From an uncultured Caldilineales bacterium (GTDB taxonomy: Bacteria > Chloroflexota > Anaerolineae > JAAEKA01), in NCBI GenBank assembly GCA_937907455.1, contig CALESQ010000079.1, positions 1 through 64,000 of the forward strand: 64,000 nucleotides of DNA, written 5' to 3'. The translations under genes were made by a program, and so were the position numbers. The stretch's first letter is position 1; the number at the start of each line of letters is the position of its first letter. The notes under the pieces are model-generated. The model had not been told where the DNA came from and did no database searches. It was given only the letters and a program-made list of their open reading frames with translations. Positions 7,591-24,433 of the stretch are shown here, piece after piece.

Positions 7591-8214
7591 ATGCCGGAAT
7601 TGGCAATTGATCTAACGCGCTACGCCGATGAAGATGCGCTGGTTAAGGCCCTGCTCGCTGGCGACAAACACGCCTGCGCCTGCCTGGTCAAAATCAACAG
7701 CAGCCAGATGTACGCGCTGGCCTTGCGCATGATGGGCGATGCCGCAGAAGCGGAAGATGTGGTGCAGGAAGCCTTCATCAGCGCTTGCAGCAAAGCTGCC
7801 AGCTTTGAGCGGCGCAGCAAGCTAAGTACATGGCTGTATCGCATCACCACCAACGCAGCGTTGATGCGCCTGCGCAAGCGGCGTGATGATACCGTATCTC
7901 TCGACGAGCCGCAAGTCAGCGAGGAAGGCGACAGCTTTCCCCGGCAACTGGGCGACTGGTCAGTGGATCCCAGCCGCGAAGCGCTGTCAGCCGAGTTGCG
8001 CGCAGTGCTAGAGGGCGCCATCGAAACCCTGCCCCCCACACTGCGCAGCGCCTTTGTCCTGCGCGACATTCAGGGCCTTAGCACGCTGGAAGCAGCCGAC
8101 GCCCTGGAGATCACCGAAAGCGCGCTGAAGGTACGTCTGCACCGTGCCCGCCTGCTGCTGCGCGAAAAGCTGGCAGGCTATCTGACCGATCACCCCACGG
8201 AGCGTATGGCATGA
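7591..8214 (+). CDS. ECF (sigma-70 family group 4) RNA polymerase sigma factor.
   Basis: Region 2 (DVVQEAFISACSKAASFERRSKLSTWLYRITTNAALMRLRKR) and region 4 (LPPTLRSAFVLRDIQGLSTLEAADALEITESALKVRLHRAR). Internal ATG at 7591 preceded by AGGAG. Its stop overlaps the start of the next gene (ATGA). Confidence 0.85.
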   Translation: MPELAIDLTRYADEDALVKALLAGDKHACACLVKINSSQMYALALRMMGDAAEAEDVVQEAFISACSKAASFERRSKLSTWLYRITTNAALMRLRKRRDDTVSLDEPQVSEEGDSFPRQLGDWSVDPSREALSAELRAVLEGAIETLPPTLRSAFVLRDIQGLSTLEAADALEITESALKVRLHRARLLLREKLAGYLTDHPTERMA

Positions 8215-9455: not shown

Positions 9456-9570
9456 GAGACAAGTACACAAGGTGACAGGTAGACAGGTAGACAGGTAGAC
9501 AAGTACACAAGGTGAGAAGGGCGGAGGCTTTGTTTCCTTGTCTACTTATTCCGTGTCTGCTTGTCTGCTC
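9456..9570. repeat. Intergenic micro-repeat. GACAAGTACACAAGGTGA flanks (CAGGTAGA)x3, followed by an inverted partial copy (cttgtctacttattccgtgtctgcttgtctgc).
   Basis: Direct reading of 9456-9570, which lies between the convergent AsnC-type and IMPase genes. Confidence 0.8.
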
Positions 9571-10349
9571 GTTATCCTCTGCAACAGCGGCTCGATCAGC
9601 GCGGCGCGCGCGGCGAGGATCGGTTCGGGCGCGGCGCGGCCATCCAACAGCGGGGTGATCTCCACGGCTGCGCCGGAGAGGTAGCGCAGTTCGATGCCCA
9701 AAGCACTCAGCAGCGGCCAAACACCAGCCAAATCCCATAGCCTGACCGGACGCAGCAGCGCGCCCACCGCCGCGCCGCGGCCTACATAGACCAGATGCGC
9801 CGCCGCGCTGCCCAAACTACGCAGCCGGGGGTAGTCAATAGTGTAAAGCTGATGCCAGTTCGACGGCACAGCCAGAAACGCGGTGCGATCCTCTAACCCG
9901 AGGGCGGGCGGCAGCAGACGGCGGCCATTCAGAAACGCACCGCGGGGGTGGCCGGTGTACAACTCGCCCACGGCAGGCAGATAAAACGCACCAGCGACGG
10001 GAACGCCCTGCTGCAAAATCCCCACGGAGATACCCCACACCGGCAAACCACTCAAGTAAGCGCGGCTGCCGTCCAGCGGATCGAGCACCCAGGTGACCGC
10101 GGGATCGTCGCCGCCCAGGTTGCCCTCCTCGGCCAGAATGCGCTCGGCGGGGAAACGGCTGCGGATGCGCGCAGCCAGCAACGCCTCAATCTGCTCATCC
10201 ACCGCGCTCACCGGCGTGTGATCGGCTTTGTCGCGCACGGCAAGATCGGCGCGACGCGCAGCCAGTGCCATGCGCCCGGCCTGCCTGAGCGTCGGCGTGA
10301 TCCAACGCAACAGCCCGCGGACAGGGAGGGACAAAGCGTTTGTTGGCAT
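9546..10349 (-). CDS. Inositol monophosphatase family protein (SuhB/CysQ-like phosphatase).
   Basis: WVLDPLDGS (compare W.IDPIDGT) and WDLAGVWPLL (compare WD.AAG). Its start lies 2 nt downstream of the stop of the AAA-wHTH gene. Confidence 0.8.
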   Translation of the reverse strand: MPTNALSLPVRGLLRWITPTLRQAGRMALAARRADLAVRDKADHTPVSAVDEQIEALLAARIRSRFPAERILAEEGNLGGDDPAVTWVLDPLDGSRAYLSGLPVWGISVGILQQGVPVAGAFYLPAVGELYTGHPRGAFLNGRRLLPPALGLEDRTAFLAVPSNWHQLYTIDYPRLRSLGSAAAHLVYVGRGAAVGALLRPVRLWDLAGVWPLLSALGIELRYLSGAAVEITPLLDGRAAPEPILAARAALIEPLLQRITSRQADTE

Positions 10350-10351
10350 CG

Positions 10352-11713
10352 TCAGGAGACGGCGTTCTCTGGCGTGTCCACCAGCCGGTAGCCATGCCCG
10401 CGCACGGTGAGCAGGTAGCGCGGTTGCGTCGCATCCGGCTCGATGGCGCGGCGCAGGTGGCGCATCAGCGAGTCAATGCGGTTTTCGCTGCCGGCCTTGT
10501 CAGGATCAAGCGCCTCGGTGGGGTATAACGCGGCCAAAATCTCATCACGGCTGCACACCTGGCCCAGCCGACGATAGAGCAGGCGCAGCAAGTCGTATTC
10601 CAGCTTGCTGAGATCGGCCAGGCGGCGGCCCTCCACCCACACCACGGCCGCGGCCTCGTCCAGCCACAGCCCGCGGTGGCTCAGCGTGCCTTTCTCCAGC
10701 ACGAAATGATGAAACACCGGCGAGAAAAAGGTCGGCTGCTCGCTGTTCTCGTCGCGAATTAAGCCTTTCAGCGCCAGCAATTCACGCGGGGTGTACGGCG
10801 CGCCGATGCCCTGGGCGAGGCGGCTCAAGGCCAGGCGCTCATCCTCGGCCAGGCCCTGCCACAGCTTGCGGTATTCTTCTGCGACCGCGGGCTGAGCCAG
10901 CGCCCAATGCACCTGCGCGTCTGCATCCGCGGGTAACTCGGTGCGCGCCAGCACATCAGACAACGCCACCAGCGAACCGGGGTGTCCACCGCTGAGACGC
11001 AGCATGGCGGCGATTTCGGCCTCGCTCCAGGCGCGGCCACGGCGCGCGGCGATCTGTGCAACCACCTGCCGCGCGTCCACATCGTTGTAGGGCTTCAAGC
11101 CAAGCACCGAGCGCGACAGCAACTCGTAGAAGCCTTCACTGTCCGCGCGGTCACGCAGGCGGCCCGGATGATCGCGCAGCATCAGCACAAAGCACACCTG
11201 ATAGCGGTCGTTGTCGCGCAGGGCGCGCAGATTGGCCAGCGCGGCCGCGGGCAAGGTGCGGTAGCTCTCGTCGAACTCGTCGAGGATGAAGCACAGGCGC
11301 AAACCATGCTCACGGCACAGGGTGCGCGTGGCCAGCTCCAAATGACGTTGCGCCAGCAGCGCGTCGCGGCGGGTAATTGCCTCTGCACGCAGCGCGTTCA
11401 GCCATTCGCGCGCGTCCGCGGGGACGCGGTTGCCCACGCCCTCGATCAGCGCGGTGAGCAGCAGCTCGTACAGGCCCCAGTCGCTTTTCTCGGCCAGGCG
11501 GTTGCAGTCCGCCAGCAGCAGCGCGGTGTGGAGCGCAGCCTCGCTCAGGTAGTGCTGCTGCACCTCCGCGCGCTGGAGGAAGAGCAGCAGCCGCGACTTG
11601 CCCATGCTGGCCGAGCCGATGATGGCCGCGGACTCGCCGCCGCGCAGGAGGTCAAAGAGGGGCGCGGCGATTTCGGCACGAAAAGAAAGGGGGTAATCGG
11701 TTAAAACAAGCAT
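10352..11713 (-). CDS. N-terminal AAA/STAND-like P-loop ATPase fused to a C-terminal OmpR/PhoB-type winged-helix DNA-binding domain.
   Basis: Walker A GSASMGKSRLL and Walker B LCFILDEFDE. C-terminus LSKLEYDLLRLLYRRLGQVCSRDEILAALYP...RIDSLMRHLRRAIEP...YLLTVRGHGYRL (trans_reg_C). Confidence 0.75.
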   Translation of the reverse strand: MLVLTDYPLSFRAEIAAPLFDLLRGGESAAIIGSASMGKSRLLLFLQRAEVQQHYLSEAALHTALLLADCNRLAEKSDWGLYELLLTALIEGVGNRVPADAREWLNALRAEAITRRDALLAQRHLELATRTLCREHGLRLCFILDEFDESYRTLPAAALANLRALRDNDRYQVCFVLMLRDHPGRLRDRADSEGFYELLSRSVLGLKPYNDVDARQVVAQIAARRGRAWSEAEIAAMLRLSGGHPGSLVALSDVLARTELPADADAQVHWALAQPAVAEEYRKLWQGLAEDERLALSRLAQGIGAPYTPRELLALKGLIRDENSEQPTFFSPVFHHFVLEKGTLSHRGLWLDEAAAVVWVEGRRLADLSKLEYDLLRLLYRRLGQVCSRDEILAALYPTEALDPDKAGSENRIDSLMRHLRRAIEPDATQPRYLLTVRGHGYRLVDTPENAVS

Positions 11714-11715
11714 GT

Positions 11716-13938
11716 TCAGGCAGGGGTTAGGTTAGGATCAGAAGGAGTTGATGCTTTTAGCAATTTTTCCCACGACAACTCAATGCCTTCCGGATCGGCA
11801 AAATCAACATAAACCAGATAGGCAATGCGCAGGGGAAGCTCAACTTTTTCCTTGCGCAAGGGGACAAAGCGCCGTTCTCGATTAGCAGAATCAAGTGTCT
11901 GTAACATCAAATTCTCGAATTCCGTCCAACCGCTATCCATGTAATTTTGTGTGAGTATAGCCACAGTTTTTCGGCTTGTCTTAATTGCACGTTCCATTTC
12001 AATGACACTAGGCGCGCCTGGCTCAAAGTCAATGAAGTCAATACAAACCTTGAGATTGGCAGCTTTCAACCGCGGCAATAACTCAGCAACCACCCAGGCG
12101 CGATCCTTTGAACTGTAAGAAATAAAAACATCATACTCAAAGGACGAAGTTGTCGAGACAGAAGGTGATGATTGAGATGGAAATGATGGCTTCTTTGGAT
12201 TGCTCCAACTCTTGGGGGGCCAAGCATCATTTTGCCCGCTGTCCAGACTGCGACAAGTTGTGCCGCCTAACAGAGCGCATCGCTCATCCAGTGGAAGATC
12301 ACCCTCTTCTATTGGGTTATCTTCCTTCCGCATAGGCAAGGTTAAACGAAATGCTGTATTCAGCAGCAACGCCCAACGGTAAGGCCTGGTATCATCACCG
12401 GTTGTTGCTTTAGCGTGTTTACGGATGGTTTTAATGGCCTCAAAAGCCTTCACTGTATCGGTGCTAGCTCCTGAAGGCAAATCTGGCTCCCAAAATTTTA
12501 CTGGGTCTGACGAAAGCAGGTTAACGACAAGATGCAGAAACTCTGAAACCTTCGTTGCAAGTACCCGAAGAAGACGGGTGAGTATATCTATTTCTAACTC
12601 AACCCAATCGGCAAAAATCGGACCTGGGCCGGAGCGTTCGAAATCAATCAACCAAAGCTGCTTGGTTGTTTCATCTATAAAACAGTTGTCGGCCTGGAGA
12701 TCGCCGTGGATAACACACATTGGAATTGACTTGGGGCTATAGTCTTGGGAAACTATATAACCATTGGTTTCGCTGGCTTGTTCTAAAGCAATTCGTTGTT
12801 TTAGCCACGTAATTGGATCTGGGAGTTTTAGTTGCTCGCTAAACCAGGCTTGAAACTCAGGCGATACCTTTTCTAAAGCGCCTGCTGATGCACCGAAACG
12901 GTTGTGCCAGTTGTTGCCCCATAATGCTCTGTAAGCTTGATAAAGAGTTACTTTATTGTCGCCTTTTTCCTTTTTTGCATCATAGTAACTCTTCCACCCG
13001 GATCCGAAGTTGTTTAATACAGTGCAGATGTCTTCTGCCTGCCTTTCTTGATAATAGATGCGAAACAGAGCACCCACATCCCCAACATTCAAATAGCGAG
13101 TACCTTGGACATCCCATAAAACAGCTTCTGATTTCAGAGTAGCATAATACCTCAATGGAAATTTATCTTCCACGTACTTCTTATAACGAGTTGATTCATC
13201 ACGCGTCGGATCTGTTCGCACGATCTTGACAATATCGGAAATTGCGTTCCCATCTCGGTTAATCCGAATAACTACTGAACGCGGACGAACGCTACCTGCA
13301 CTGGGAAAACGATCATCGCTTTCTAAAGAATGGACTGCTAGCTGCTGGGCATCAGGATATAATTTCCAGAGGAGATCTTCTATTTCATCCACAGGAACAT
13401 CATCTTGATCAGGGAAAAGGCGTTTAATTAACTGTTCCGAGCCACCAATACTAAATGGCCATTTAATAAGCTCTTTTGTAAAGCGCCCCCAGTACTGGAG
13501 CTTTACTTCTTCAATAGTTTTCTCAAGCTCCTCAGGACCACTTTCCTTACCAACAAAGTCATAAGCGCGTAGGGGTACATCAGGTGGTGATTTGATAGCT
13601 GCACGCACGGTATCTTTGTCACCGTATCCGCTCACAATAATAGACACTGTAGGAGCGAGATGAGAAACAAGTTCCAAGCCTGTCCGATCAGTGGGATCAC
13701 CATCGCTTCTGAGCCGCATATCCACAAGAGCAATATGACATCGGTAATCATGCGCCTTTTTGATAGCGTCATCCCAAAGCGCCTGAAACAGATTGTCAGC
13801 GTCTTCGGGCGCTTCAGCCGCGTACGCTTCGTAACCCCAATCAGCAAGATTTTTGAGATGATCTTGTCGCCATTGCGGATCGTTCTCCACCACCAGAACA
13901 CGCGGCAGGTTCTCTTTACCCTTAGTATTGTCACTCAT
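11716..13938 (-). CDS. Three-domain protein: response-regulator receiver (REC), protein-kinase-like (APH/choline-kinase-type) phosphotransferase domain, and a C-terminal TIR domain.
   Basis: REC: RVLVVENDPQ...HIALVDMRL...VSIIVSGYG...AYDFVGK. Kinase-like: IHGDLQADNCFID (HGDLhxxN catalytic loop) and LWLIDFERSG (DFG/IDWE equivalent). TIR: YDVFISYSSKD (beta-A), DFEPG (BB-loop P-G) and SGWTEFENLM (the W-x-x-x-E glutamate used by NADase TIRs). Confidence 0.8.
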   Translation of the reverse strand: MSDNTKGKENLPRVLVVENDPQWRQDHLKNLADWGYEAYAAEAPEDADNLFQALWDDAIKKAHDYRCHIALVDMRLRSDGDPTDRTGLELVSHLAPTVSIIVSGYGDKDTVRAAIKSPPDVPLRAYDFVGKESGPEELEKTIEEVKLQYWGRFTKELIKWPFSIGGSEQLIKRLFPDQDDVPVDEIEDLLWKLYPDAQQLAVHSLESDDRFPSAGSVRPRSVVIRINRDGNAISDIVKIVRTDPTRDESTRYKKYVEDKFPLRYYATLKSEAVLWDVQGTRYLNVGDVGALFRIYYQERQAEDICTVLNNFGSGWKSYYDAKKEKGDNKVTLYQAYRALWGNNWHNRFGASAGALEKVSPEFQAWFSEQLKLPDPITWLKQRIALEQASETNGYIVSQDYSPKSIPMCVIHGDLQADNCFIDETTKQLWLIDFERSGPGPIFADWVELEIDILTRLLRVLATKVSEFLHLVVNLLSSDPVKFWEPDLPSGASTDTVKAFEAIKTIRKHAKATTGDDTRPYRWALLLNTAFRLTLPMRKEDNPIEEGDLPLDERCALLGGTTCRSLDSGQNDAWPPKSWSNPKKPSFPSQSSPSVSTTSSFEYDVFISYSSKDRAWVVAELLPRLKAANLKVCIDFIDFEPGAPSVIEMERAIKTSRKTVAILTQNYMDSGWTEFENLMLQTLDSANRERRFVPLRKEKVELPLRIAYLVYVDFADPEGIELSWEKLLKASTPSDPNLTPA

Positions 13939-16900
13939 GATTTCGCTCCTGAATTACTTGGCTTAGATGGCAGGCGGATAGCGAACAAAGCCCCTTGACC
14001 TTCAACGGCTGGGTAGAGATGGATGCGCCCGTTCATTGTTTCGATCAATGATTGGGCAATCAGTAAGCCAAAACCACTGTTTTGCTGGGTGTCGTCATTC
14101 TTTTTGGTCGAAAAGGGTCCGCGCAAAAGGTGTCGCCGCGCTTCAAAATCAAGACCAGGGCCGTTGTCCTGAATTTGCAGTTCCACTTGCTCAGAGGAAA
14201 GACGGTGGACGCGCAACGTGATTTGCTTAACAAGGGTTGTCGCCAGCGCTTCGGCTGCATTGCGCAATAGATGGCGTACAGCGCGCCAGGTTTGTTCTTT
14301 GTAGGCATAAACGACATGATCTTCATCGTCGGCAAAGGTTATCTTTACGTCGGAAGCGTTCGTGATGCGCCAGTGACGCACTCGGGGTTCGAGGAATTCT
14401 TTCAAAAAAAATCCGACCGGATCATTTCGTTCTATGTGCGCGTCACGCACAGTGTCTGCCAATTGCCCTGCGCGTCCGTCAATCTCTTTAGCCCAATCCA
14501 CTTTTTGATCTGCGGTAGCCCTGGTATCTGTTTGCAGCCAGCCCGCACGATTGCGAATATAGCCCACCTCGCTGTTGATGTCATGAGCAATATCAGCCGC
14601 CCAGGCCATCGCGCCGGCCACTGAAACGCGACTCTGTGCCAATGCAGCATGGCCTAAGCGGTCAAGCGCCAAAGCAACTTGTTTGGCTGCCATTTCAAAA
14701 AGTCTCTCGTCGTCTTCACCAAAAGCATTCGGTGTGTCACTCTTGATCACCAAGACCCCGATCAGCTTATCGTTGCTGCCCAATAAGCCAGCGCATAGCT
14801 CAGACTGTGTGTTTGAGTTGACTTCAACATATATGCCCTTGTACTTCTCGTCATGAACGTTTTTGACGTTTTCTATGATGATTTTCTTCTCGTTAAGGGA
14901 ACGTCGGGCTACCTCGCAGGTGATCCCTTCGCCGTCAAGGGGTAAACGGACACGGTGCTGATATTCAGGTATTGTAGGCTGATAAAATTCCCTTGCCACC
15001 TTGGGAAGCTCTAACACATCCTCGCGATCCTCGTAGAGCATAATATAAGGCGTTGCTGTAGGATCTTTGCGGCTAAACTCCTCTTTTAAGACGTTTAATA
15101 CGCCGCGCAAAACAGTGTCAAGGTCCAGGCTGGCTCCTGCGGCGGTGGCAACCCTCAAGGCAGTCTCAAATCGTTGCTGTCGCTGCTGTGCCAATTCCAG
15201 CGTTTGCGCATTGTGGATGGCGGTGGCAGCAGCGTCGGCAAAGGCGGTGAACAAGGCCCGCTCAGTAGCCAAAAACTCATGACGTTTGCGATAATTTAAG
15301 AATAATGCTCCAATTGCAGCAGATTTGGTACCGAAGCGCAAGGAAAGTGCCGCAGTTGAGAAAATGCCCTCCTCGCGCGTAAAGTCTCCATCTAAGACGG
15401 AGCCGTTCTCTATAACCGAAGCAAACAAAGGATTAGGGCGCTCCATCACGGTTTTCACCAGGTGATCACTGGTTCTGCTGCCACGATGTTTTTCGTTTTG
15501 TACATTCCATTGCGGCCCTGAAATCAGCTTGTCTTTGTCTTCTGCATCGGTATACCACATGGTGATGCAATCCAGTTCCGGCGCCACCTTGCGGGCATAC
15601 GCGACGATGGCGTCGAGGGTTGTGGCTAAGTCCATAGATGCAGACACGGTAGCAATCGTCTGCGCCATGGTTTGCAGATCACTGCGGGTGCGTACGCTAT
15701 CCAACGCCAACTCGCAGGCCCGGCCCAAGCGCTGTAAGCTCTCTTCATCCAGAGTGCTGAAGGATGCTTTCTTGTCTGATTGGCGGACGGCCAATGCGCC
15801 GATGGCTTTTTCACCGGTGCGCAGCAGAACAATTAAATCATTCTTGTTGCGGTGTAAAGGCTTGTTTTGCTCCAAAACCTGGCCAATCGCTCCAGCATGG
15901 ATTTCGCTAGACAGCGAGCGCAGCTCGCCTTTTGGGGTGAGATGATAATCGCGGCGCATTTGCTTGCGCTGTTCCCCTTCTCCTTCCCAGTGAGCTATAG
16001 CCAGAGTAGTTTTGACTCGGTGATCGAACAGGTCTGCAGTATTCGATAGAATGGAGCGTCTTAACTTTTTCTCATCCACATCGGAGGCCAACGCTTGAGC
16101 TTGAATGTTCGCGATCAGTTGCATGCTAAGCCGTTGCCGTTCCATGCCATGCTCAGCTTGGACGCGCCCATGTTGTTCCTGCCCGAATTCACGCGCATAG
16201 CTAATGACCGTAGCGCCAATTGTCGCCAGATGTTCGGAGCGGGCAATGTCCTCTTCGGTGAAAGATCGCGGTGTACGATAGTCAAAATAAATCACACCCA
16301 GCGGTTCTGCTGTCAAGGCTTTGCGCATGGGAACGGCTATCATTGCTTTGACACCTTCACGCTTGACAAATGAATGTTCAGCGAGGCGCTTGCCCCCAAA
16401 CTTTAGCGTAGAATGATCAACGTCAGCTACCACCAGATTACCAGATTGCAAGACCGAAAAGGTGACGCCTTGTTGGCGCGGTTTGTTTTTAGAGATGAAA
16501 TCATCACCGTGGTTCAAGCCACGATGGACAACGTTGTTCAAGTCATAAGCGCCTGTTTCAGCCAGATAGGGATAAATCACAATACTGTTCGCTGACATGA
16601 TGGAATCAGCGGATTGGTCACACAGGTCTTGCAAGCTCTCTTTTAAGGGTCGCTGGGCTGCCCGCTCGGTGATGCGCCGGTTGAGTGCGAGGATGTTTTC
16701 ATACTTTTCGCCAAGCAGGCGACTTCGGTTTCTTTCCTGTGCCTGCTGCCATTCAGTCATGGCCTGCGCCAGCAATTCTTCCACCTTGCTCAGATCGCCA
16801 TGACGAAGGGGCTCGCCGTCAAAAGCGTTGTCTACCCACAAAACCCCGATGACTTTGCCACCCTGTTTGACCGGCAGCAAGGCGCAGTCGTAGTCTGTTG

Positions 16901-18809
16901 CCTTGTCCAGTAAATCAGATGGGTGGGGCAATGAACTTTCCGGCAGCGCATTTTCCAATGCCGAAGAAGCCATGGTTCTGCGTGCTGGACTACGCAAAAT
17001 ATCAACCTGCTCTGAGCTAAGTCGCCACTCAACGACTGCCTGTTGCAGAGGGGTTGGATCAGACAAGGCCAGATGAGGAGCGGCAAAGTAGTCTTGCAGG
17101 CTTTTTTTGCCATCGCGATCCTTTTCCCAGGACCCCCGCGCCTCTTTGCGCGTCCAGTGGCCAATGGCCATGCGTCCCATCCAGAGGCTATCTGCCACCG
17201 GCGATTGCAAAAACAGCAAGGCGCGGTTGAAACTGTTGCCCTCGCGATGGGTAATCGTAGTCAACACGGCATGCCAAAAGCCTTCTTCTGACTCCTCGAT
17301 CAAACGCGGCAGCACGGCCCGGAGTTGCTTGGCTGCTTCATCCTGGCGCTTCTTCTCTTCTTCGCGCTCGTGCTGATAGGCCGCATAAATCGCACCGGCA
17401 ATTTGATCAGCAATTTTGCCGAGTAGCTGCTGATGGCTAGGCGTATAGGATATTTTTTCATCATAACTTTGAACAGCTAGCACACCAATGACTTTTCCAC
17501 TATCTAATCGCAGTGGCACGCCCAGCCAACAAGCAGCCGGCCTGCCAAAATGGTCAATGCCATTATCTTGACAGAATTTTATCGCATCATGAAAAAGCAG
17601 AGATTGGTTTTTGGATATGAGATAACCACTCACTGCACTACCTGGTTTATGCCAGTGGCGATCTTGTAACACGTTGTCTTCATAGTGTCTTCGATAATCA
17701 AGATAGCCTGTTTCCAAATCGGACAAAACAACCATAAAGTTAGATACATCCAGCTTGACACGTTTTCCCACCAGGCGGCGTATCTCGTCCAGCAGTTCAT
17801 CGAGATTGCTGGTAGCGGCTTTGGTAATGATCTGCCTGCCAATGGTACTCAACAACTCCGCTTCCCGCGCCTGCTCTTGCGTTTGCTCATGCAGCCGCGC
17901 CCGCTCTAACGCCGCTGCGGCCTGATTGCCGAACAAAGCTAATACCGCCCCGATTTGATTGCGCTGTTGTGCGCTAAAAGCAGAATCCAGTTCATCGTTG
18001 TCCAGAGTGAGTGTACCAACTTTGTGGTTTCCGCTCGACAGCGGGATTTTTACCCATTCTCCGACCGGTGGTTGCATCCCTTGGGCTGCATAAAATTCAT
18101 CAGTTCCACCCTTACCTGCCTCACGCGCCTTGAAGATCATCGGCTTGCCAGCTTCAATTGCTTGCTTGGAATACATTAACTCCTTCAAAGGTGCGCGCAA
18201 ACCTGCAAACCCTTTCAAGCGAGCGGTGCCTGCCTGACTAACACCTACCATTTCAGGATCACCCTGTGCTTCCTGGCCTTGTTCTACCAAGAGGCGCAAG
18301 CGCGCGCGCTTAAAATCAAAGTGTAGAGCGCCCTGAACAATGGCATCGGCTACAGCTTGCACGGTCGAGGCGCTCTGCATGGCGGTGGTGACCTCGGTCA
18401 AAATTTGCAGCCAGTTGCGTTCATTGCGAATACCACGGCTTTTTTCAATGGACTTAAGCACGTAGACGAGTTCGCGCGTGTCAAAAGGCTTGGTCAGATA
18501 GCGATACGCCCCCAAATCAAAGGCAGCAATCCCCGCCTCAACCTCGTTGTAACCAGTCAGGATGATGGCATCGCTTTCCGGGCTGAGATCGCGCAGTTGC
18601 CCCATCAAGACAACACCGTTAACGTCCGACCCTTCCAGGCGTTGATCCAAAACAAAAGCAGCAAAAGGCGAGGCAGCCTCCTTCACCGCCAAACGCGCCT
18701 GTGCTGCGCTGTTGACGGCAACCACATCAAATCCTTTTTCGAGTCGCCTCAGTTGCTCACCGAGCATGTGAGCAAGTACTTCGTCGTCGTCTACAATTAA
18801 AATACGCAT
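13935..18809 (-). CDS. Giant hybrid sensor histidine kinase: N-terminal REC, at least 6 tandem GAF domains, HisKA and HATPase_c (about 1,625 aa).
   Basis: REC: MRILIVDDDEV...AFVLDQRLEG. GAF cores, for example ACWLGVPLRLDSGKVIGVLAVQS, LGVIYFDY, IGALAVRQS and LIGVLVIKS. H-box ADIAHDINSEV. HATPase_c: QDNGPGLDF...GFGLLIAQSLIETMNGRI. The start was placed at the internal ATG at 18809 (MRILIV), giving a 16-nt gap to the upstream gene. Confidence 0.8.
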   Translation of the reverse strand: MRILIVDDDEVLAHMLGEQLRRLEKGFDVVAVNSAAQARLAVKEAASPFAAFVLDQRLEGSDVNGVVLMGQLRDLSPESDAIILTGYNEVEAGIAAFDLGAYRYLTKPFDTRELVYVLKSIEKSRGIRNERNWLQILTEVTTAMQSASTVQAVADAIVQGALHFDFKRARLRLLVEQGQEAQGDPEMVGVSQAGTARLKGFAGLRAPLKELMYSKQAIEAGKPMIFKAREAGKGGTDEFYAAQGMQPPVGEWVKIPLSSGNHKVGTLTLDNDELDSAFSAQQRNQIGAVLALFGNQAAAALERARLHEQTQEQAREAELLSTIGRQIITKAATSNLDELLDEIRRLVGKRVKLDVSNFMVVLSDLETGYLDYRRHYEDNVLQDRHWHKPGSAVSGYLISKNQSLLFHDAIKFCQDNGIDHFGRPAACWLGVPLRLDSGKVIGVLAVQSYDEKISYTPSHQQLLGKIADQIAGAIYAAYQHEREEEKKRQDEAAKQLRAVLPRLIEESEEGFWHAVLTTITHREGNSFNRALLFLQSPVADSLWMGRMAIGHWTRKEARGSWEKDRDGKKSLQDYFAAPHLALSDPTPLQQAVVEWRLSSEQVDILRSPARRTMASSALENALPESSLPHPSDLLDKATDYDCALLPVKQGGKVIGVLWVDNAFDGEPLRHGDLSKVEELLAQAMTEWQQAQERNRSRLLGEKYENILALNRRITERAAQRPLKESLQDLCDQSADSIMSANSIVIYPYLAETGAYDLNNVVHRGLNHGDDFISKNKPRQQGVTFSVLQSGNLVVADVDHSTLKFGGKRLAEHSFVKREGVKAMIAVPMRKALTAEPLGVIYFDYRTPRSFTEEDIARSEHLATIGATVISYAREFGQEQHGRVQAEHGMERQRLSMQLIANIQAQALASDVDEKKLRRSILSNTADLFDHRVKTTLAIAHWEGEGEQRKQMRRDYHLTPKGELRSLSSEIHAGAIGQVLEQNKPLHRNKNDLIVLLRTGEKAIGALAVRQSDKKASFSTLDEESLQRLGRACELALDSVRTRSDLQTMAQTIATVSASMDLATTLDAIVAYARKVAPELDCITMWYTDAEDKDKLISGPQWNVQNEKHRGSRTSDHLVKTVMERPNPLFASVIENGSVLDGDFTREEGIFSTAALSLRFGTKSAAIGALFLNYRKRHEFLATERALFTAFADAAATAIHNAQTLELAQQRQQRFETALRVATAAGASLDLDTVLRGVLNVLKEEFSRKDPTATPYIMLYEDREDVLELPKVAREFYQPTIPEYQHRVRLPLDGEGITCEVARRSLNEKKIIIENVKNVHDEKYKGIYVEVNSNTQSELCAGLLGSNDKLIGVLVIKSDTPNAFGEDDERLFEMAAKQVALALDRLGHAALAQSRVSVAGAMAWAADIAHDINSEVGYIRNRAGWLQTDTRATADQKVDWAKEIDGRAGQLADTVRDAHIERNDPVGFFLKEFLEPRVRHWRITNASDVKITFADDEDHVVYAYKEQTWRAVRHLLRNAAEALATTLVKQITLRVHRLSSEQVELQIQDNGPGLDFEARRHLLRGPFSTKKNDDTQQNSGFGLLIAQSLIETMNGRIHLYPAVEGQGALFAIRLPSKPSNSGAKS

Positions 18810-18825
18810 CGTTTTTCCCTTCCCG

Positions 18826-21039
18826 TCAGATACGATAGGGCAGCTCCACCGCCATGGTGGTGCCCCAAAGGGTATGGCTGGACTCGATAAATACACGACC
18901 GCCCTGAGATTCGATCAGGCTGCGGGCAATGAACAACCCCAGACCGCTTCCATCTTCTCTGGTGGTATAGTCCATCTCAAAAATTCGTTCCCACAAGCGC
19001 TGATGAATGCCCGGGCCGTCATCCTGCACATATAAGCGCAGGATGTTTTTTCCTTCATGTTTGGTTTGTAGCATTTGAATTTCAACCCGGCCGCCACGCT
19101 CCGGTCTCGTTAACGCGATTTGCTGGATGGCATTTTGTACTACATTCACCAACACCTGTTGCAGGTAGGTAATCATCGCCCGCGTGAAATAAAGTTTGGG
19201 AGCTGGGCGGAGAATTAATTCAACTTTGTTTTCTTTGGCCGTTTCGCTCAGCAGGCTCACCACTTCATGGGCAACTTCGTCCAGACGAATTAATTCTTCC
19301 ACCCCTGAGCGTGTTATTTTGCCGAAAGAGTGCATCGTATGGGCCATGCTTTGTGTTTGTTGCGTCAGCTTTTGCAGTTCTTCTTTTGTCCGTGCTGTTT
19401 CCCTGATAACTTCCTCAGGAGAAGTAAGGGCACATTGCTCTACCCGCTTGCAGCCCTCTTCGAGATCCCGCAAGATAAGATTGAGTGGGCTAATACGTCC
19501 GCTGATTTCATGAATCACGGTGCGGCTCAACTGCCCCAGCAAAGCAACCCGTTGTAAATCCGCCGTTTGTTTAATCAATTGCTGGCGTTCCAGCCAGGAA
19601 GCAATGCGCGCCGCGCTTCCTTCGGCGCTGGCGATCAGCCCATTGGGGATGAAAGCGAGCGGGTGACTGAAAAACAGGAACAATGCGTAGCGTTTGCGCA
19701 GATGAGCCGGCACCGGCACGCCGCAGCACGCGCTGAAATCAAGCAAAGGCAGCACGTGTCTTAAGCGTCCGGCGGTTTGCTGCTGAACATGGTTAGCAGT
19801 AAAAACAGTCTGCTCTTCAGCCACGTTGCGTATCGGACTGTAGATTAGCTCCGGCCACGCCGTGTTGCGCAAAGAAACAGGCCCTTTGTGTTCAAACACC
19901 TTGATCTGCGCCTGATCTGTATCCAGCTCAAAGAGCACTGCCTTGTCAGCTTGCGCAGCACTGATAGCACGCAGCAGCATAACAGCCAGTTCGCTTTGTT
20001 CAGCCTTGGGTACGGTAAATACAGATTGTTCTAATGTCATACGGGTAGGCGAACTGGAAGGTGCTAGTGATTGGTCGGGCTTTTCCAGCAACATTTCAGC
20101 TAAATGGTTAGGCAGTAAAGGCTTGATCAAGAGCGATACTCCCTCTTTGCGCAGGGGCGTTAGCTCCTTGTCACGGCGTTCTGCCCTTCCCCAATCGGTC
20201 ATCAACACGCAGCGCAGCTCAGGCCATTGGAATCTGATCTGCCGGGCTGCGGCAATGCCATCCATGCCGGGCAGGCCAATATCCATCAACACCAAATCCG
20301 CCGATTGTGCTTCAAGAAAGGCAAGAGCCTCCTCTGCCTTCTCAGCCACATAAACGACACGTTGACCGACATTACGTAGCCAGTTCGCCAGCGACAGACG
20401 TTGATCCTCCTCATCTTCTACCACTACGATAGATTTAGGAACGCTGCTCAAGAGCTGTTGAATAGCGGTATTGTTAAGTCGGCTGGGAGACAATCCCTGT
20501 ACTGCACTCTTTGTCACAGTTTCAGGGTAGTGCCCGGCGCTATTCCATCGGTATTTTTCCAGTTGGCGCATGCTCAAAGCAACCCGTCTGCGCTTGCGGT
20601 CAACCGCGTCTATCGTTACTTTGACCAGATCACCGGGCCAGAAAACATCACCTATTGCCTCTTGTTTCCAATCGGGAAGATGAGAGATATGAACCAACCC
20701 AGAAAAGTCCTTTTCGAGCTTAACAAATACCCCATACGGCATGATGCCATCAACAACGCCACTAACTAAAGCGCCTACTGGAAAGCCATCAGCAGTGACA
20801 TTCCACAAATAAGCTTCAGCCAGCCAAATTTCCTCACTGTGTTGGCCCACAGCTTCGATTGGCTGTACAACGATTTCCAGCGAGTCTCCAGGCTTGTAAC
20901 GAGGAATTCTGGGGAACTTTGCCAGGATTTCAGGATTTGTGTCCCGCACCAACCCCTGCCGCCCATCCGGCAGCGCGACAATCAACCCGGCAGGGGTTGC
21001 GCGCACAACACGGGCATGGAGGGGCTGCGAGTAAAGCAT
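18826..21039 (-). CDS. Hybrid sensor histidine kinase with two N-terminal S1 RNA-binding domains, then REC, HisKA and HATPase_c.
   Basis: S1 domain: GALVSGVVDGIMPYGVFVKLEKDFSGLVHISHL...GDLVKVTIDAVDRKRRRVALSMRQL. REC: KSIVVVEDEEDQRL...DLVLMDIGLPGMDG. H-box VIHEISGRISPL. HATPase_c: YVQDDGPGIH...GSGLGLFIARSLIESQGGRV. Confidence 0.75.
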   Translation of the reverse strand: MLYSQPLHARVVRATPAGLIVALPDGRQGLVRDTNPEILAKFPRIPRYKPGDSLEIVVQPIEAVGQHSEEIWLAEAYLWNVTADGFPVGALVSGVVDGIMPYGVFVKLEKDFSGLVHISHLPDWKQEAIGDVFWPGDLVKVTIDAVDRKRRRVALSMRQLEKYRWNSAGHYPETVTKSAVQGLSPSRLNNTAIQQLLSSVPKSIVVVEDEEDQRLSLANWLRNVGQRVVYVAEKAEEALAFLEAQSADLVLMDIGLPGMDGIAAARQIRFQWPELRCVLMTDWGRAERRDKELTPLRKEGVSLLIKPLLPNHLAEMLLEKPDQSLAPSSSPTRMTLEQSVFTVPKAEQSELAVMLLRAISAAQADKAVLFELDTDQAQIKVFEHKGPVSLRNTAWPELIYSPIRNVAEEQTVFTANHVQQQTAGRLRHVLPLLDFSACCGVPVPAHLRKRYALFLFFSHPLAFIPNGLIASAEGSAARIASWLERQQLIKQTADLQRVALLGQLSRTVIHEISGRISPLNLILRDLEEGCKRVEQCALTSPEEVIRETARTKEELQKLTQQTQSMAHTMHSFGKITRSGVEELIRLDEVAHEVVSLLSETAKENKVELILRPAPKLYFTRAMITYLQQVLVNVVQNAIQQIALTRPERGGRVEIQMLQTKHEGKNILRLYVQDDGPGIHQRLWERIFEMDYTTREDGSGLGLFIARSLIESQGGRVFIESSHTLWGTTMAVELPYRI

Positions 21040-21157
21040 GGTCGGCAGCTTTCGTGAACAGAAAACAGCATACAGACGAGGACGATAACGCGGGGAAAGT
21101 TCACTCGCTATTATAACACAGCCACACTGCCCTGCTGCTATCAGATTTCTGGCAAAA

Positions 21158-21262
21158 TCCTGACAAAGCTGTCAAAGATTTCTGACATGCGCCTTTTGTC
21201 AGAAATTGCAGCCAGTTGTCAGCCGCCAGACAGCCTGGTGTCAGGTAGGAATTCCTGACCTG
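21158..21262. promoter_or_regulatory. Array of TGTCAG/CTGACA inverted repeats (candidate operator sites) in the promoter region of the S1-HK / TIR operon.
   Basis: CTGACAaagcTGTCA (21160-21174); TTCTGACAtgcgccttTTGTCAGAA (21180-21204); TTGTCAGccgcCAGACA (21216-21235); GGTGTCAGGtaggaattCCTGACC (21238-21260). Also a direct repeat AGATTTCTG x2. Confidence 0.55.
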
Positions 21263-21342: not shown

Positions 21343-21567
21343 ATGGAAATCGCACTCGTGTTGCTGTTCATCATCGGTCTGATGGGTGTCTACATTCTTT
21401 ACCTGACCGTGCGCCTGAGCCTGTCGAGCCGCACCACGATGGTAGTGATGGCCCCAACTCCTGCTGGCGAGCAAGGTAACGGCTGCGGCGTGGCCGTGTT
21501 CCTGATCCTGACCATCATTGCAGCCATCATCCTCACCCTGGTCTTTGGACCGATCTTTCTCGGATAA
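21343..21567 (+). CDS. Small two-TM membrane protein (hypothetical).
   Basis: RBS AAAGGAG; two hydrophobic helices (LVLLFIIGLMGVYILYL and VFLILTIIAAIILTLVFG). Confidence 0.5.
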   Translation: MEIALVLLFIIGLMGVYILYLTVRLSLSSRTTMVVMAPTPAGEQGNGCGVAVFLILTIIAAIILTLVFGPIFLG

Positions 21568-21620
21568 ACTACCCCCACTCTATAATCACTCCGCAACCCC
21601 ATTTGCAAAGGAGTATCCCC

Positions 21621-21983
21621 ATGAACACCCTCACCGCCAAACTCTACGAGAAGAAACTGTTGGAAGAAAAAGCTTGGTGCACTGACATGATCGAACACCT
21701 GGCTGACCATGCCACCATGGACCCCCAGAACAACTACGCCGTAACAATGGCTCGGCACAAGCTGGTCAAGATCGAACGGGCTTTACGCCGGGTTGCTGCC
21801 GGCACCTATGATCAGTGCGACCAATGCGGCGACAAGATCGAGGCGGAGCGCCTTGAAATCCTGCTTGACAGCGAACACCATAGCTGCGCCCGTTGCGCCA
21901 CTGCCATTCGTCCCACCAACAAGCGAATGCCGGTGCGCCAACCAGCCTACGGCTACGGCCAGATGGCCCTGGCGCAGGCATAG
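21621..21983 (+). CDS. DksA/TraR-family C4 zinc-finger protein.
   Basis: CDQCGDKIEAERL...HHSCARCA four-Cys finger after an N-terminal coiled coil. RBS AAAGGAGT upstream of the ATG at 21621. Confidence 0.65.
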   Translation: MNTLTAKLYEKKLLEEKAWCTDMIEHLADHATMDPQNNYAVTMARHKLVKIERALRRVAAGTYDQCDQCGDKIEAERLEILLDSEHHSCARCATAIRPTNKRMPVRQPAYGYGQMALAQA

Positions 21984-22035
21984 CGCTAAACCCTCACCCT
22001 ACACGCGTTTCTGTTGAGGCACAGGAGGCAAGCCC

Positions 22036-22359
22036 ATGAACGTTCCCAACCTGCGCAACTCTGACACCGCCGGACTAGCCGCCATTCGTCGCTGGCAGCC
22101 ATGCGCCATAATCGCTGCTGATATGGCTGCAACCACCGGCGACTCGGTCCAGCCAATCTATTTTAACATCAGTTATGGCCTTGCTGCCCAAGCCCATTAC
22201 CCCTGGGCAGCCCGGATGTGGGAACTGAAAACTCCTCCCAAGCGTCCGGCAATTGACAAAATCGTACTCTCTGCAGAGGCTCTCACCTGCCTGCAGGATG
22301 TGCTAGATCTGCTAGAGGCAACGCTCATCCCATCAACCGACTATGTACTTATACAATAA
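22036..22359 (+). CDS. Hypothetical protein.
   Basis: ORF with RBS ACAGGAGG; followed by a terminator. Confidence 0.4.
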   Translation: MNVPNLRNSDTAGLAAIRRWQPCAIIAADMAATTGDSVQPIYFNISYGLAAQAHYPWAARMWELKTPPKRPAIDKIVLSAEALTCLQDVLDLLEATLIPSTDYVLIQ

Positions 22360-22536: not shown

Positions 22537-22797
22537 ATGGGTCAACTCGTCTGGCATCGGCACGACATCGAGAATATCCTGCGCGGCGTGGAGCTGGCAG
22601 GCCTGCAAACCGCGGGTCAGATGAATGACGCAGAGCTGGCCGGCTATCGCCGCGGCTTCCTGGCCGCGTTGGCGGCCACGGCTACCAGCTTCGGCATTGA
22701 GGTGAGACCCTTGCCTCTCGCCGCCCCCGCAGAAAGCCAACTCCCCCCCCTTACCCCCGCGCATCACCGCTATCCAAACCGAACGGGAGAGCGCTAA
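22537..22797 (+). CDS. Hypothetical small protein (weak call).
   Basis: ORF from the internal ATG MGQLVWHR. No recognisable domain. Confidence 0.3.
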   Translation: MGQLVWHRHDIENILRGVELAGLQTAGQMNDAELAGYRRGFLAALAATATSFGIEVRPLPLAAPAESQLPPLTPAHHRYPNRTGER

Positions 22798-24189: not shown

Positions 24190-24433
24190 ACGCACCTCCA
24201 CTTGCCACCACCAAAAACCAAACCCGAAAGACGACAGCCACACAGTGCAAAATTTAGCAGCGTTGCACAGTCGCCGGCCCACTCCGAGCTTCCAACTCCA
24301 CTGTCTGGGCAATTTCTGCCGCAAGGGCAAAAACCCCCAAGTTAACAAGAAACAAAGCGTCACTATTGTCACACAAACAGATAACAAAAACCATGATTTA
24401 AATCATATTAGCCTTGCCAAAATCAGGGCGGCC

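Follow-up and report, generated by a model that had tools for sequence, protein, structure and literature searches.

The histidine kinase examined here, encoded on the minus strand of the window (the whole 64-kb stretch of DNA that was analysed), carries an N-terminal receiver (REC) and seven GAF domains and is part of a cassette of fixed gene order. The order is S1-S1-REC-HK, REC-7GAF-HK, REC-TCAD9 with a variable C-terminus and, usually, a STAND NTPase fused to an OmpR-type winged helix (wHTH). This arrangement is kept in all 19 other loci examined, in three classes of Chloroflexota and down to 27% identity. With a probability of about 0.5, we read the enzyme as a Rec-controlled, GAF-gated relay kinase that would work in a Detocs-like two-component switch for conflict or programmed death with an added Rec-HK tier. 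A wider proposal, which we make tentatively and at slightly less than even odds, is that the cassette represents an undescribed two-component class of immunity or programmed death in filamentous Chloroflexota. A tandem-S1 RNA-sensing kinase and a seven-GAF Rec-controlled kinase would relay to TCAD9, a REC-gated small-molecule kinase with interchangeable death domains, and the STAND-wHTH protein would regulate the cassette's own expression through TGNCA repeats. A multi-GAF kinase alone is routine in Chloroflexota, and the value of this one lies in its fixed partnership. We found no description of the four-gene cassette in the literature; it is apparently undescribed, and the kinds of domain it contains are already known. 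The five genes of the operon are the following.

18826 to 21039, minus strand: S1-S1-REC-(GAF-like)-DHp-CA kinase (S1-HK), 737 aa, upstream partner (Pfam S1, Response_reg, HATPase_c).
13935 to 18809, minus strand: REC-7xGAF-DHp-CA histidine kinase, whole gene, 1,624 aa plus stop (ORF, translation, Pfam).
11716 to 13938, minus strand: REC-TCAD9 (APH-like kinase)-TIR protein, 740 aa, downstream partner (TIR_2 E 1e-22, TCAD9 E 1e-15, APH).
10352 to 11713, minus strand: STAND-type P-loop NTPase with an OmpR/PhoB-type winged helix, 453 aa (Trans_reg_C E 1e-16, AAA_16, nSTAND1).
9546 to 10349, minus strand: inositol-monophosphatase-family gene, possible accessory (Inositol_P E 5e-32).

ORF analysis shows a real gene in an open frame at 13935 to 18896 of the minus strand. 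The ATG of MRILIVDDDEV, at 18809, gives the 1,624-aa product and is preceded by GGGAAGGGAAAAACG. The same start was obtained in an independent gene call on an identical contig and is agreed on by all 22 aligned orthologues. Among 28 near-full-length relatives (84 to 100% query coverage), 26 are 1,594 to 1,643 aa long, and full-length orthologues with 27 to 54% identity occur in Anaerolineae, Caldilineae and Chloroflexia. The five genes follow each other with a 16-nt spacer (between the S1-HK stop and the kinase ATG), a 4-nt overlap (of the kinase stop with the TCAD9-TIR start) and two 2-nt gaps. The open reading frame and the kinase claimed in an earlier, sequence-only reading of this DNA are confirmed, with the minus strand added as a correction, and all phosphorylation and catalytic residues are intact.

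Pfam searches with the whole protein gave Response_reg at aa 3 to 117 (E 1e-16), GAF_2 (E 7e-50), GAF (E 3e-45), GAF_3 (E 7e-28) and HATPase_c at aa 1509 to 1616 (E 8e-17). The domains, all on the minus strand, were delimited as follows.

18438 to 18809, minus strand: receiver REC, aa 1 to 124, phospho-acceptor D55 (Response_reg; NtrC-type REC structures, E 2e-12).
17874 to 18428, minus strand: GAF1, aa 128 to 312 (GAF_2 over full length, E 6.5e-5, under the gathering score).
17340 to 17873, minus strand: GAF2, aa 313 to 490 (GAF_2 E 9e-13, GAF E 5e-12).
16716 to 17327, minus strand: GAF3, aa 495 to 698, divergent, with a helical insert and the signature FWHxxLT...FNRAxLFL.
16170 to 16712, minus strand: GAF4, aa 700 to 880 (GAF E 5e-7; hhalign 98.9% to GAF6).
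15690 to 16148, minus strand: GAF5, aa 888 to 1040 (partial Pfam match; hhalign 96% to GAF2 over 135 columns).
15186 to 15686, minus strand: GAF6, aa 1042 to 1208 (GAF_2 and GAF, both E 2e-6).
14634 to 15182, minus strand: GAF7, aa 1210 to 1392 (GAF_2 E 4e-12).
14310 to 14633, minus strand: DHp region, aa 1393 to 1500, H-box AHDINSEV with H1409 as the phosphorylated His (FixL core alignment).
13938 to 14309, minus strand: catalytic ATP-binding domain, aa 1501 to 1624 (HATPase_c E 8e-17).

The previously quoted GAF cores were all found (KVIGVLAVQS at aa 439, LGVIYFDY at 837, AIGALAVRQS at 1002 and LIGVLVIKS at 1349), and the earlier count of at least six GAF domains becomes exactly seven by Pfam fragment scans and profile-profile comparison. 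The fragment scans gave GAF matches in all seven units: clear in G2, G4, G6 and G7, full length yet below threshold in G1, and partial only in G3 and G5. Profile-profile comparison of orthologue sub-alignments linked G1, G2, G4, G5, G6 and G7 at 90 to 99% probability, with G1 at 97% to G2 and at 93% to G6 over 159 columns, and G2 gave a generic match to the N-terminal GAF of NifA. A phmmer search of the GAF region (aa 125 to 1396) against PDB sequences returned no match at E<=1, and the G3 profile found only weak GAF matches (best E 7e-4). Because these sequence searches gave little, the structures of G3 and G5 were predicted; G5 was modelled by AlphaFold with a pLDDT of 93, and its Foldseek neighbours are GAF domains at probability 1.00.

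The kinase core is of the FixL kind. Residues 1381 to 1619 align with the FixL kinase core in 4gcz (E 5e-9), and the DHp region was recognised only through FixL and NCBIfam kinase alignments; Pfam gave no HisKA-type match to it, and a 116-aa fragment matched no family at E<=1. In the alignment of the kinase with 22 orthologues, H1409 and the receiver residues D7, D8, D55 and T85 are unchanged in 23 of 23 sequences, and the N, G1 and G2 boxes are present with N1517, G1550, G1579 and G1581 invariant. No hydrophobic segment was found in either kinase, in the TCAD9 protein or in the STAND protein, and the GAF kinase is predicted to be soluble and cytoplasmic. We suggest that this DHp-CA core would be gated jointly by the REC and by the seven GAF domains, which are ancient and non-equivalent and would form a rod. 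The enzyme had been called a hybrid kinase with an N-terminal REC. The REC stands, but the hybrid label has to be dropped: a classical hybrid has its REC C-terminal to the core and an Hpt domain, whereas the REC here is N-terminal and no Hpt was found among the Pfam matches of the five operon proteins. The position of the REC therefore indicates a Rec-controlled kinase.

The next question is what would phosphorylate this REC. In each of the 19 other loci examined, the gene immediately upstream of the GAF kinase codes for an S1-S1-REC-HK protein. The two S1 units of the S1-HK match each other (hhalign 95.5%), and its D253, H510, N632 and N636 are invariant in 17 orthologues. Its middle domain reached a probability of at most 11% against GAF profiles, though the alignments were near full length, and it is labelled GAF-like only because of a weak Pfam GAF_2 match in one orthologue. 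The relay from the S1-HK to the REC of the GAF kinase, which had been put forward from the sequence of this one stretch, gains comparative support from the constant adjacency of the two genes and from the 23 of 23 conservation of the REC residues. In a shorter cassette type the S1-HK gene is missing and the multi-GAF HK lacks the REC; the other members are a REC-TCAD9 gene, a Band_7-like gene and a P-loop NTPase that has no wHTH. The S1-HK and the N-terminal REC thus appear together, which makes the GAF kinase the direct partner of REC-TCAD9 and ties the S1-HK to the extra REC. Since the S1-HK has a REC of its own, the order of the kinases could also be reversed or reciprocal.

For activation of a REC-HK by another HK there is an experimental precedent in LvrA, LvrB and LvrC of Leptospira (PMC13269768). 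LvrB likewise has an N-terminal REC with an intact phospho-acceptor upstream of DHp-CA (PMC13269768). However, LvrB is REC-alphaS-DHp-CA with nothing between, whereas about 1,270 residues of seven GAF domains (aa 128 to 1392) separate REC and DHp here, and the Lvr output is an anti-sigma factor rather than a REC-gated APH-like kinase with TIR. An adjoining upstream kinase and a downstream REC protein make a kinase-to-kinase-to-REC cascade without Hpt plausible. We propose that the S1-S1-REC-HK, likely a cytoplasmic RNA sensor, would phosphorylate the REC of the GAF kinase. The GAF kinase would combine the relay signal with its GAF input and autophosphorylate on H1409, and the next to receive the phosphoryl group would be the REC on the TCAD9 (APH-like) kinase protein. 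The swappable C-terminal domain of that protein would carry out growth arrest or cell death.

The presumed receiving protein has the residues for this role. Across 35 relatives, D73, S103 and K131 of its REC are nearly invariant, and in the TCAD9 domain H411 and G412 are invariant and D413, N418 and D432 are kept in at least 90%. The TIR domain of the window protein retains the Glu of the W-x-x-x-E motif in alignment with TLR1 and TLR6 and is probably an NADase. Across loci, the C-terminus is TIR, CHAT, caspase (C14), trypsin or no added domain, and these types interleave on the kinase tree and differ even between sister kinases. A 1,367-aa fusion protein joins REC-GAF units directly with TCAD9-TIR. 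In four loci only (L002, L014, L015 and L021; none in the window), a stand-alone REC gene lies between the kinase and TCAD9 genes. These RECs keep the Asp and are paralogues of the TCAD9-type REC, with 34 to 37% identity to it versus 21 to 24% to the kinase RECs.

In its logic such a layout resembles Detocs, in which the HK of DtcA/DtcB/DtcC passes phosphate to a REC-effector with a swappable effector (bioRxiv 10.1101/2023.01.24.525353). The cassette shares with it a kinase and a REC-effector protein whose effector domains are exchanged (TIR, CHAT, C14, trypsin or none), and the stand-alone RECs resemble the DtcB phosphate buffer and could buffer stray phosphate. However, Detocs has a single kinase, a TPR sensor and mostly PNP effectors, whereas the cassette has S1 and GAF kinases, TCAD9 between REC and effector, and a STAND-wHTH protein; no TPR or PNP domain was found in the Pfam matches of the cassette proteins. 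The range, Chloroflexota, also differs from that of Detocs. The vWA-MoxR-VMAP systems share TCAD9 and the TIR, caspase and trypsin effectors with the cassette, and both are enriched in filamentous, multicellular bacteria (PMC7159879). Here, in contrast to these systems, TCAD9 always adjoins a multi-GAF kinase. Pfam annotation of the window cassette, and of called genes in the annotated loci, showed no vWA, MoxR or VMAP domain, and histidine kinase domains were not found among the vWA-associated effectors (PMC7159879). The cassette is not Thoeris either, in that its TIR gave only weak ThsB matches (E 3e-4 or worse) and the operon has no ThsA-like (SLOG/Macro) gene. To our knowledge, Detocs is the only defence system that has been shown experimentally to work by His-Asp phosphotransfer. 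If our reading is true, this principle would also cover a relay of two kinases with RNA-binding S1 domains at its input, and the TCAD9 kinase, so far seen only in predicted vWA-MoxR conflict systems, would be placed under two-component control.

A defence role is not the only one that can be considered. The system might be a housekeeping regulator of stress or development in which both the STAND-wHTH factor and the small-molecule kinase TCAD9 are under the control of the two kinases, the TIR and protease domains being occasional add-ons; we think this possible but rather unlikely. In 9 of 17 loci, more than half, the REC-TCAD9 protein has no recognisable death domain, as would be expected of a regulator no less than of a defence system. 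A regulator would also be in keeping with the strong conservation of the STAND-wHTH protein and its candidate operator, the recurrence of phosphatase-family and Band_7 genes nearby, and the lack of a match to known defence-system models: no model of PADLOC-DB 2.0.0, a release that may not include Detocs models, matches either kinase or the STAND protein. The flanks of the window cassette are syntenic with those in the two nearest Anaerolineales genomes, which indicates that the cassette can be stably inherited. However, the genomic context differs beyond the closest relatives, and at two loci the copy is decayed, bearing IS insertions or frameshifts. Conflict systems, from which the TCAD9 and nSTAND1 families were themselves defined (PMC7159879, PMC8195603), are described as swapping domains in the repeated, tree-interleaved way seen here for TIR, CHAT, caspase and trypsin. 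The effector gene is also abruptly low in GC, and the cassette is a compositional mosaic (TCAD9-TIR 45.8%, the two kinases 52%, STAND-wHTH 66.5%).

The signal that the GAF array would contribute to the relay was considered next. Small-molecule sensing in general is possible for these domains. The sequence-only reading had gone further and proposed that they bind cyclic nucleotides or TIR-derived ADP-ribose isomers, by which the TIR enzyme encoded downstream would feed back on the kinase. We regard this model as very improbable, although some GAF domains do bind cAMP or cGMP and the same operon encodes a TIR with the conserved Glu. A conserved NKFDE motif marks the cNMP-binding GAF domains of the PDE/CyaB type. 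With the regular expression NK..[FY]...DE, such spacing turned up in a single unit of the window protein, G5, and in 0 of 22 orthologues, and G5 is the least conserved unit (20% mean identity to distant orthologues). The tandem GAF domains of PDE2/5/6 and CyaB1/CyaB2 share the fold and the joining by long helices, but the window domains have no conserved NKFDE, are 9 to 17% identical to them, number seven instead of two and serve a histidine kinase as output. The structural neighbours of the predicted G3 and G5 do include PDE and CyaB GAFs, but as part of a mixture (orphan, PtsP, phytochrome and PDE GAFs) in which cNMP-binding GAFs are not favoured over the others. We noted no nucleotide cyclase in the gene annotations of the loci examined. 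As for TIR products, their sensors known to us are SLOG and Macro domains, not GAFs. Among loci with a complete TCAD9 gene only 4 of 17 encode a TIR, as do 7 of 77 REC-TCAD9 relatives, while the seven GAFs are orthologous throughout and are kept by sister kinases that differ in effector. Since the killing domain can be swapped, the GAFs are unlikely to exist for sensing TIR products, and the feedback finds no support as a conserved role; lineage-specific sensing may occur in the TIR-bearing loci. It is the TCAD9 kinase, not TIR, that invariably accompanies the array, and ligand screens should therefore not stop at TIR products.

Bilin-binding GAF domains of phytochromes and cyanobacteriochromes hold their chromophore Cys in a CH or DxCF context. 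No CH or D.CF occurs anywhere in the kinase. The REC-GAF-HK dual-sensor kinase (PDB 6OAP and 6OAQ; Shin et al. 2019), a structure among the top Foldseek neighbours of G5, has the same order of REC, GAF and DHp-CA. It is reported to have one bilin-binding cyanobacteriochrome GAF, whereas the window kinase has seven GAFs without such a Cys. By analogy, this structure may serve as a model of how REC phosphorylation and a GAF signal could act jointly, and the window enzyme would be a natural Rec-controlled kinase with a long GAF integrator, bearing on how REC and sensor signals are combined.

The array might also bind no small molecule. It would then form a long dimeric helical spine, or a surface on which other proteins dock (the S1-HK, TCAD9 or one from an invader), and would tune the relay in gain or timing. 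GAF number, GAF order and protein length (1,594 to 1,643 aa) are all tightly fixed, G4 and G5 are the least conserved units (25% and 20%) with hardly any invariant polar residue, and the models of G3 and G5 end in helices of about 25 to 28 residues that would extend into the next domain. Even so, we judge a wholly ligand-free array unlikely, given that invariant residues (Arg, Trp, His, Thr, Asp and Tyr) cluster in G1, G3 and G6 across 27 to 54% overall identity, which suggests specific binding sites. G6 is the richest in invariant polar and aromatic residues (T1064, T1083, W1085, S1151, Y1173, R1174, H1177 and E1183).

The fourth gene of the cassette points to a transcriptional layer of the proposed relay switch. 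Of 15 loci whose sequence reaches far enough downstream, 13 have the STAND-wHTH gene, which encodes the best conserved cassette protein (63 to 69% identity in five loci). Two further features lie beyond the S1-HK gene.

21150 to 21174, minus strand: three direct repeats TGACAGCTTTGTCAGGATTTTGCCA ahead of the S1-HK gene, in its promoter region (pattern search).
21343 to 22359, plus strand: three small divergent genes of 74 aa (membrane), 120 aa and 107 aa (gene calls).

The repeat pattern has a single match in 64 kb, with 0.07 expected by chance, and recurs in the corresponding position of 8 other distinct loci, with near-matches in 4 more. We suggest that these conserved TGNCA repeats are a candidate operator of the STAND-wHTH protein, which probably controls transcription of the cassette through them. 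A promoter and terminator scan of 9 to 22.5 kb gave counts no higher than chance. The inositol-monophosphatase-family gene, for which another gene caller placed the start later (241 aa), comes next after STAND-wHTH in L012, L016 and L025 and is located downstream of it in L011. In the viral contigs scanned there was no kinase orthologue and only a distant GAF match. Clear defence-island neighbours are only sporadic, with PIN, HicAB, BrnT or transposases in a few loci. Of the divergent genes, the 120-aa protein recurs in 6 loci (36 to 42% identity) and the 107-aa protein in 4, and the 74-aa protein has a hydrophobic segment.

The GAF kinase is encoded by a single long ORF (13935..18896, minus strand), and the multi-GAF kinase gene that the sequence-only reading had placed here was confirmed, together with every motif quoted for it. 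Translation from the ATG at 18809 yields 1,624 aa, with the N-terminus MRILIVDDDEV. This ATG lies 16 nt past the stop of the gene for the upstream partner kinase, S1-HK, and is preceded by the purine-rich GGGAAGGGAAAAACG. The same start was chosen by the gene caller on the identical public contig, and the N-terminal start is common to all 22 aligned orthologues.

Whole-protein Pfam analysis placed Response_reg at residues 3-117 and HATPase_c at residues 1509-1616, with strong cumulative scores for GAF, GAF_2, and GAF_3. The GAF units were delimited by cuts at the '...IGxL...' cores that recur along the protein, and each fragment was scanned singly with Pfam. GAF matches were found in all seven fragments (G1 to G7, from the N to the C terminus): clear for G2, G4, G6, and G7, full length and below the gathering score for G1, and only partial for G3 and G5. 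When sub-alignments of each unit from 23 orthologues were compared with hhalign, G1, G2, G4, G5, G6, and G7 were interlinked at 90-99% probability, mostly over 135-159 columns, and G3 was linked to G1 only (90%). The two weakest units, G3 and G5, were modelled from their orthologue alignments; the G5 model had a pLDDT of 93, and its Foldseek neighbours were GAF domains with a probability of 1.00. From the fragment matches, the hhalign links, and the modelling, we therefore conclude that the kinase has seven GAFs. Pairwise identity among them is 11-30%; the array is an ancient one and did not arise by recent tandem expansion.

The DHp region gave no Pfam HisKA match; residues 1381-1619 align to the FixL kinase core (E 5e-9). 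Invariant in 23 sequences are D7, D8, D55, and T85 of the REC, H1409 of the H-box, and N1517, G1550, G1579, and G1581 of the ATP-binding domain. Neither kinase, GAF kinase or S1-HK, contains a hydrophobic segment. Since the REC is N-terminal and Pfam detected no Hpt domain in the operon, the protein belongs with the Rec-controlled kinases and not with the classical hybrid kinases. The earlier description of a hybrid kinase with an N-terminal REC and at least six GAFs thus holds for the REC and for the GAFs, now seven, but not for the hybrid type. A Rec-controlled kinase is known in LvrB, the N-terminal REC of which is phosphorylated by LvrA; LvrB, activated in this way, then phosphorylates the REC of LvrC (PMC13269768). 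The GAF kinase differs from LvrB in having seven GAFs between REC and DHp. The dual-sensor REC-GAF-HK 6OAP, a structural neighbour of G5, is a precedent for combined REC and GAF inputs, although it contains a single bilin-binding GAF instead of seven.

The protein search returned 28 near-full-length relatives (84-100% of the query covered, 30-54% identity), of which 26 are 1,594-1,643 aa long; beyond these, scores fall steeply, and the matches are generic multi-GAF proteins. In a genome scan, 12 loci were detected, 11 in Chloroflexota MAGs or isolates and one in an unclassified bacterial MAG, the named groups being Anaerolineales, Anaerolinea, Anaerolineaceae, Caldilineaceae, Chloroflexales, and Candidatus Viridilinea. 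The protein is not evenly conserved: distant orthologues are on average 44% identical in the REC and 35, 36, 28, 25, 20, 32, and 34% identical in G1 to G7, respectively. The invariant polar or aromatic residues lie mostly in G1, G3, and G6. A profile search with G3 matched 252 cluster representatives at E<=1e-30 and 1,388 at E<=1e-10, and more than 40 of the top 150 matches are proteins of 1.58-1.68 kaa that align at residues ~480-700, as the query does. The GAF3 subtype (16716-17327, in 14622-18437; signature FWHxxLT...FNRAxLFL) is widespread and also occurs in bigger multi-GAF proteins of 1.9-3.1 kaa, with up to 11 matching stretches.

The kinase gene is the second of five minus-strand genes, separated by a 16-nt spacer, a 4-nt overlap, and two 2-nt gaps:
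Gene 1, S1-REC-HK (S1-HK), 737 aa
Gene 2, GAF kinase, 1,624 aa
Gene 3, REC-TCAD9-TIR, 740 aa
Gene 4, P-loop NTPase (AAA_16/nSTAND1) fused to Trans_reg_C (STAND-wHTH), 453 aa
Gene 5, 9546-10349, minus strand, inositol-monophosphatase/CysQ family, 267 or 241 aa depending on the gene caller's start

We compared 19 other distinct loci (comparison loci carry handles in the L series), using precomputed gene calls or our own ORF calling with BLAST. In all 19, S1-HK is directly upstream of the GAF kinase, with IS110 copies inserted between them in one, and a REC-TCAD9 gene is downstream. Of the 15 loci in which the downstream sequence is long enough, 13 have STAND-wHTH. The S1-HK architecture is S1-S1-REC-(GAF-like)-DHp-CA, with D253 and H510 invariant. 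We put the probability that the architecture of the GAF kinase and its membership in this cassette are correct above 0.9. The kinase alone is ordinary; what makes it interesting is that it keeps a fixed position in a conserved two-kinase cassette whose effectors are swapped, and no description of this cassette was found in the literature searched.

Outside the cassette, only the two nearest Anaerolineales genomes have flanking genes in common with the window. Mean GC content over the window is 58%; STAND-wHTH reaches 66.5% (GC3 82%) and the phosphatase-family gene 66.4%, the two kinases have 52%, and REC-TCAD9-TIR has 45.8% (GC3 41%). This mosaic, with junctions of only 2-4 nt, suggests gene-level replacement within the cassette (9546-21039). 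The inositol-monophosphatase/CysQ-family gene also comes next after STAND-wHTH in L012, the distant L016, and L025, and lies ~3 kb farther downstream in L011; as a speculation, this enzyme might reverse a TCAD9-made phosphoester. Two cassettes are decayed: in L009 (4964-21018), the two kinase genes are separated by IS110 transposase genes, and the coding sequences of the kinase, TCAD9, and STAND proteins are fragmented; in L019 (9157-15642) the GAF kinase is broken into four ORFs.

The C-terminal part of REC-TCAD9 varies among the loci as follows:
TIR alone: window, L026
Caspase (Peptidase_C14) and TIR: L002
CHAT and TIR: L025
CHAT: L010, L011, L012
Trypsin_2: L008
None recognised: nine loci

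When only the REC-TCAD9 part was used as the query, 77 relatives were retrieved, almost all with ~95% of the query covered; 7 have TIR, 11 CHAT, 10 Peptidase_C14, 1 DUF4062, and the others no further Pfam domain. On a neighbour-joining kinase tree, on which some kinase-effector pairings were assigned indirectly (one of these was checked directly and confirmed), the effector types interleave: TIR appears in three separate places, and the homologue P0027, with no added domain, is sister to P0028, with a caspase. TIR is a swappable module of the cassette. H411 and G412 of the TCAD9 domain are invariant, D413, N418, and D432 are kept in at least 90% of 35 relatives, and Asp, Ser, and Lys of the REC show almost no variation. 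The window TIR retains the Glu of the W-x-x-x-E motif, which aligns with WCHYE of TLR1 and TLR6; in NADase TIRs, this Glu is the catalytic residue.

It had been proposed that the GAFs sense cyclic nucleotides, possibly a TIR-derived one as feedback. However, no orthologue has the NK...F...DE spacing, which in the window protein is confined to G5; a motif search found no CH or DxCF cysteine motif in the kinase; and the structural neighbours of the modelled GAFs are of several kinds (orphan, PtsP, NifA/Nlh, phytochrome, DevS, and PDE GAFs). Neither motifs nor structural neighbours identified a ligand, and cyclic-nucleotide sensing is not supported. The seven-GAF array is retained domain for domain whether TIR is present or absent, and a conserved role in sensing a TIR product is therefore not supported either. 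Should there be feedback, we speculate that its signal would more parsimoniously come from the TCAD9 kinase, which is invariant, than from TIR.

The order of the relay can be approached from variant loci. A short cassette type is found beside the long type in L002 (1-6549) and L010 (1-6526) and alone in L023 (5690-13779) and L024 (5991-13742). It comprises a multi-GAF kinase without REC, a REC-TCAD9 of 513-546 aa, and a 336-375-aa P-loop NTPase, a STAND-domain homologue without wHTH; S1-HK is absent from all four. Three of them (L002, L010, and L023) carry a Band_7-like gene, and the L002 kinase has a weak AAA_35 match at its N-terminus. From the short type, REC-TCAD9 is probably the direct partner of the GAF kinase, and S1-HK and the N-terminal REC of the GAF kinase appear to have been gained together. 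The 1,367-aa fusion P0029 (L006, 2155-6258) joins REC, about four GAFs, TCAD9, and TIR in one polypeptide, with 28% identity to REC-G1-G2 of the query. A separate TIR_2 gene lies just upstream of the fusion gene. In four loci, an extra stand-alone REC with its Asp kept is encoded between the GAF kinase and TCAD9 genes; it is a paralogue of the TCAD9-type REC (34-37% identity, compared with 21-24% to kinase RECs) and might act as a competing phosphate sink. Taken together, the short type, the fusion, and the stand-alone RECs favour an order in which S1-HK would pass the signal to the REC of the GAF kinase and then on to REC-TCAD9, and we lean towards this order. They strengthen the earlier suggestion that the GAF kinase is a relay intermediate downstream of S1-HK, but because S1-HK has its own REC, reciprocal control between the two kinases is also possible.

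Detocs likewise has a kinase to REC-effector relay, swappable effectors, and a stand-alone REC buffer, and can be an abortive-infection system (bioRxiv 10.1101/2023.01.24.525353). Pfam and PADLOC models, among which Detocs is perhaps not represented, gave no evidence that the cassette belongs to Detocs by sequence. The TCAD9 and nSTAND1 families derive from predicted conflict systems of multicellular bacteria (PMC7159879, PMC8195603), and no histidine kinase domains were reported among the effectors of the TCAD9-associated vWA-MoxR-VMAP ternary systems (PMC7159879). We give a defence or cell-death role slightly short of even odds.

Upstream of the S1-HK start by ~110-135 bp, three direct repeats, TGNCA-N4-TGNCA-N6-TGNCA, lie at 21150-21174 (minus strand). 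The pattern has no second match in the 64-kb window, where chance would give 0.07, and recurs at the same place in eight other distinct loci, with near-matches in four more. It is a candidate operator, to which the STAND protein would probably bind through its OmpR-type wHTH. Downstream of the repeats is an extended -10 (TGTTATAAT), and a second TGACA/CTGGCA cluster is found farther upstream (21180-21250). In L018 (Candidatus Viridilinea, ~7680-7930), a tandem repeat of a ~14-bp unit, AGCCTGTCGAAGCC, replaces the TGNCA operator upstream of S1-HK. Beyond S1-HK lie three small divergent genes and a Band_7/SPFH gene:
21343-21567, plus strand, 74-aa membrane protein
21621-21983, plus strand, 120-aa protein with a weak DksA/TraR zinc-finger match, recurring in six loci
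22036-22359, plus strand, 107-aa protein
22794-24221, minus strand, Band_7/SPFH protein

Small divergent genes, alike by position, occur at the same place in L025 and L026, and L025 also has a Band_7 gene there.
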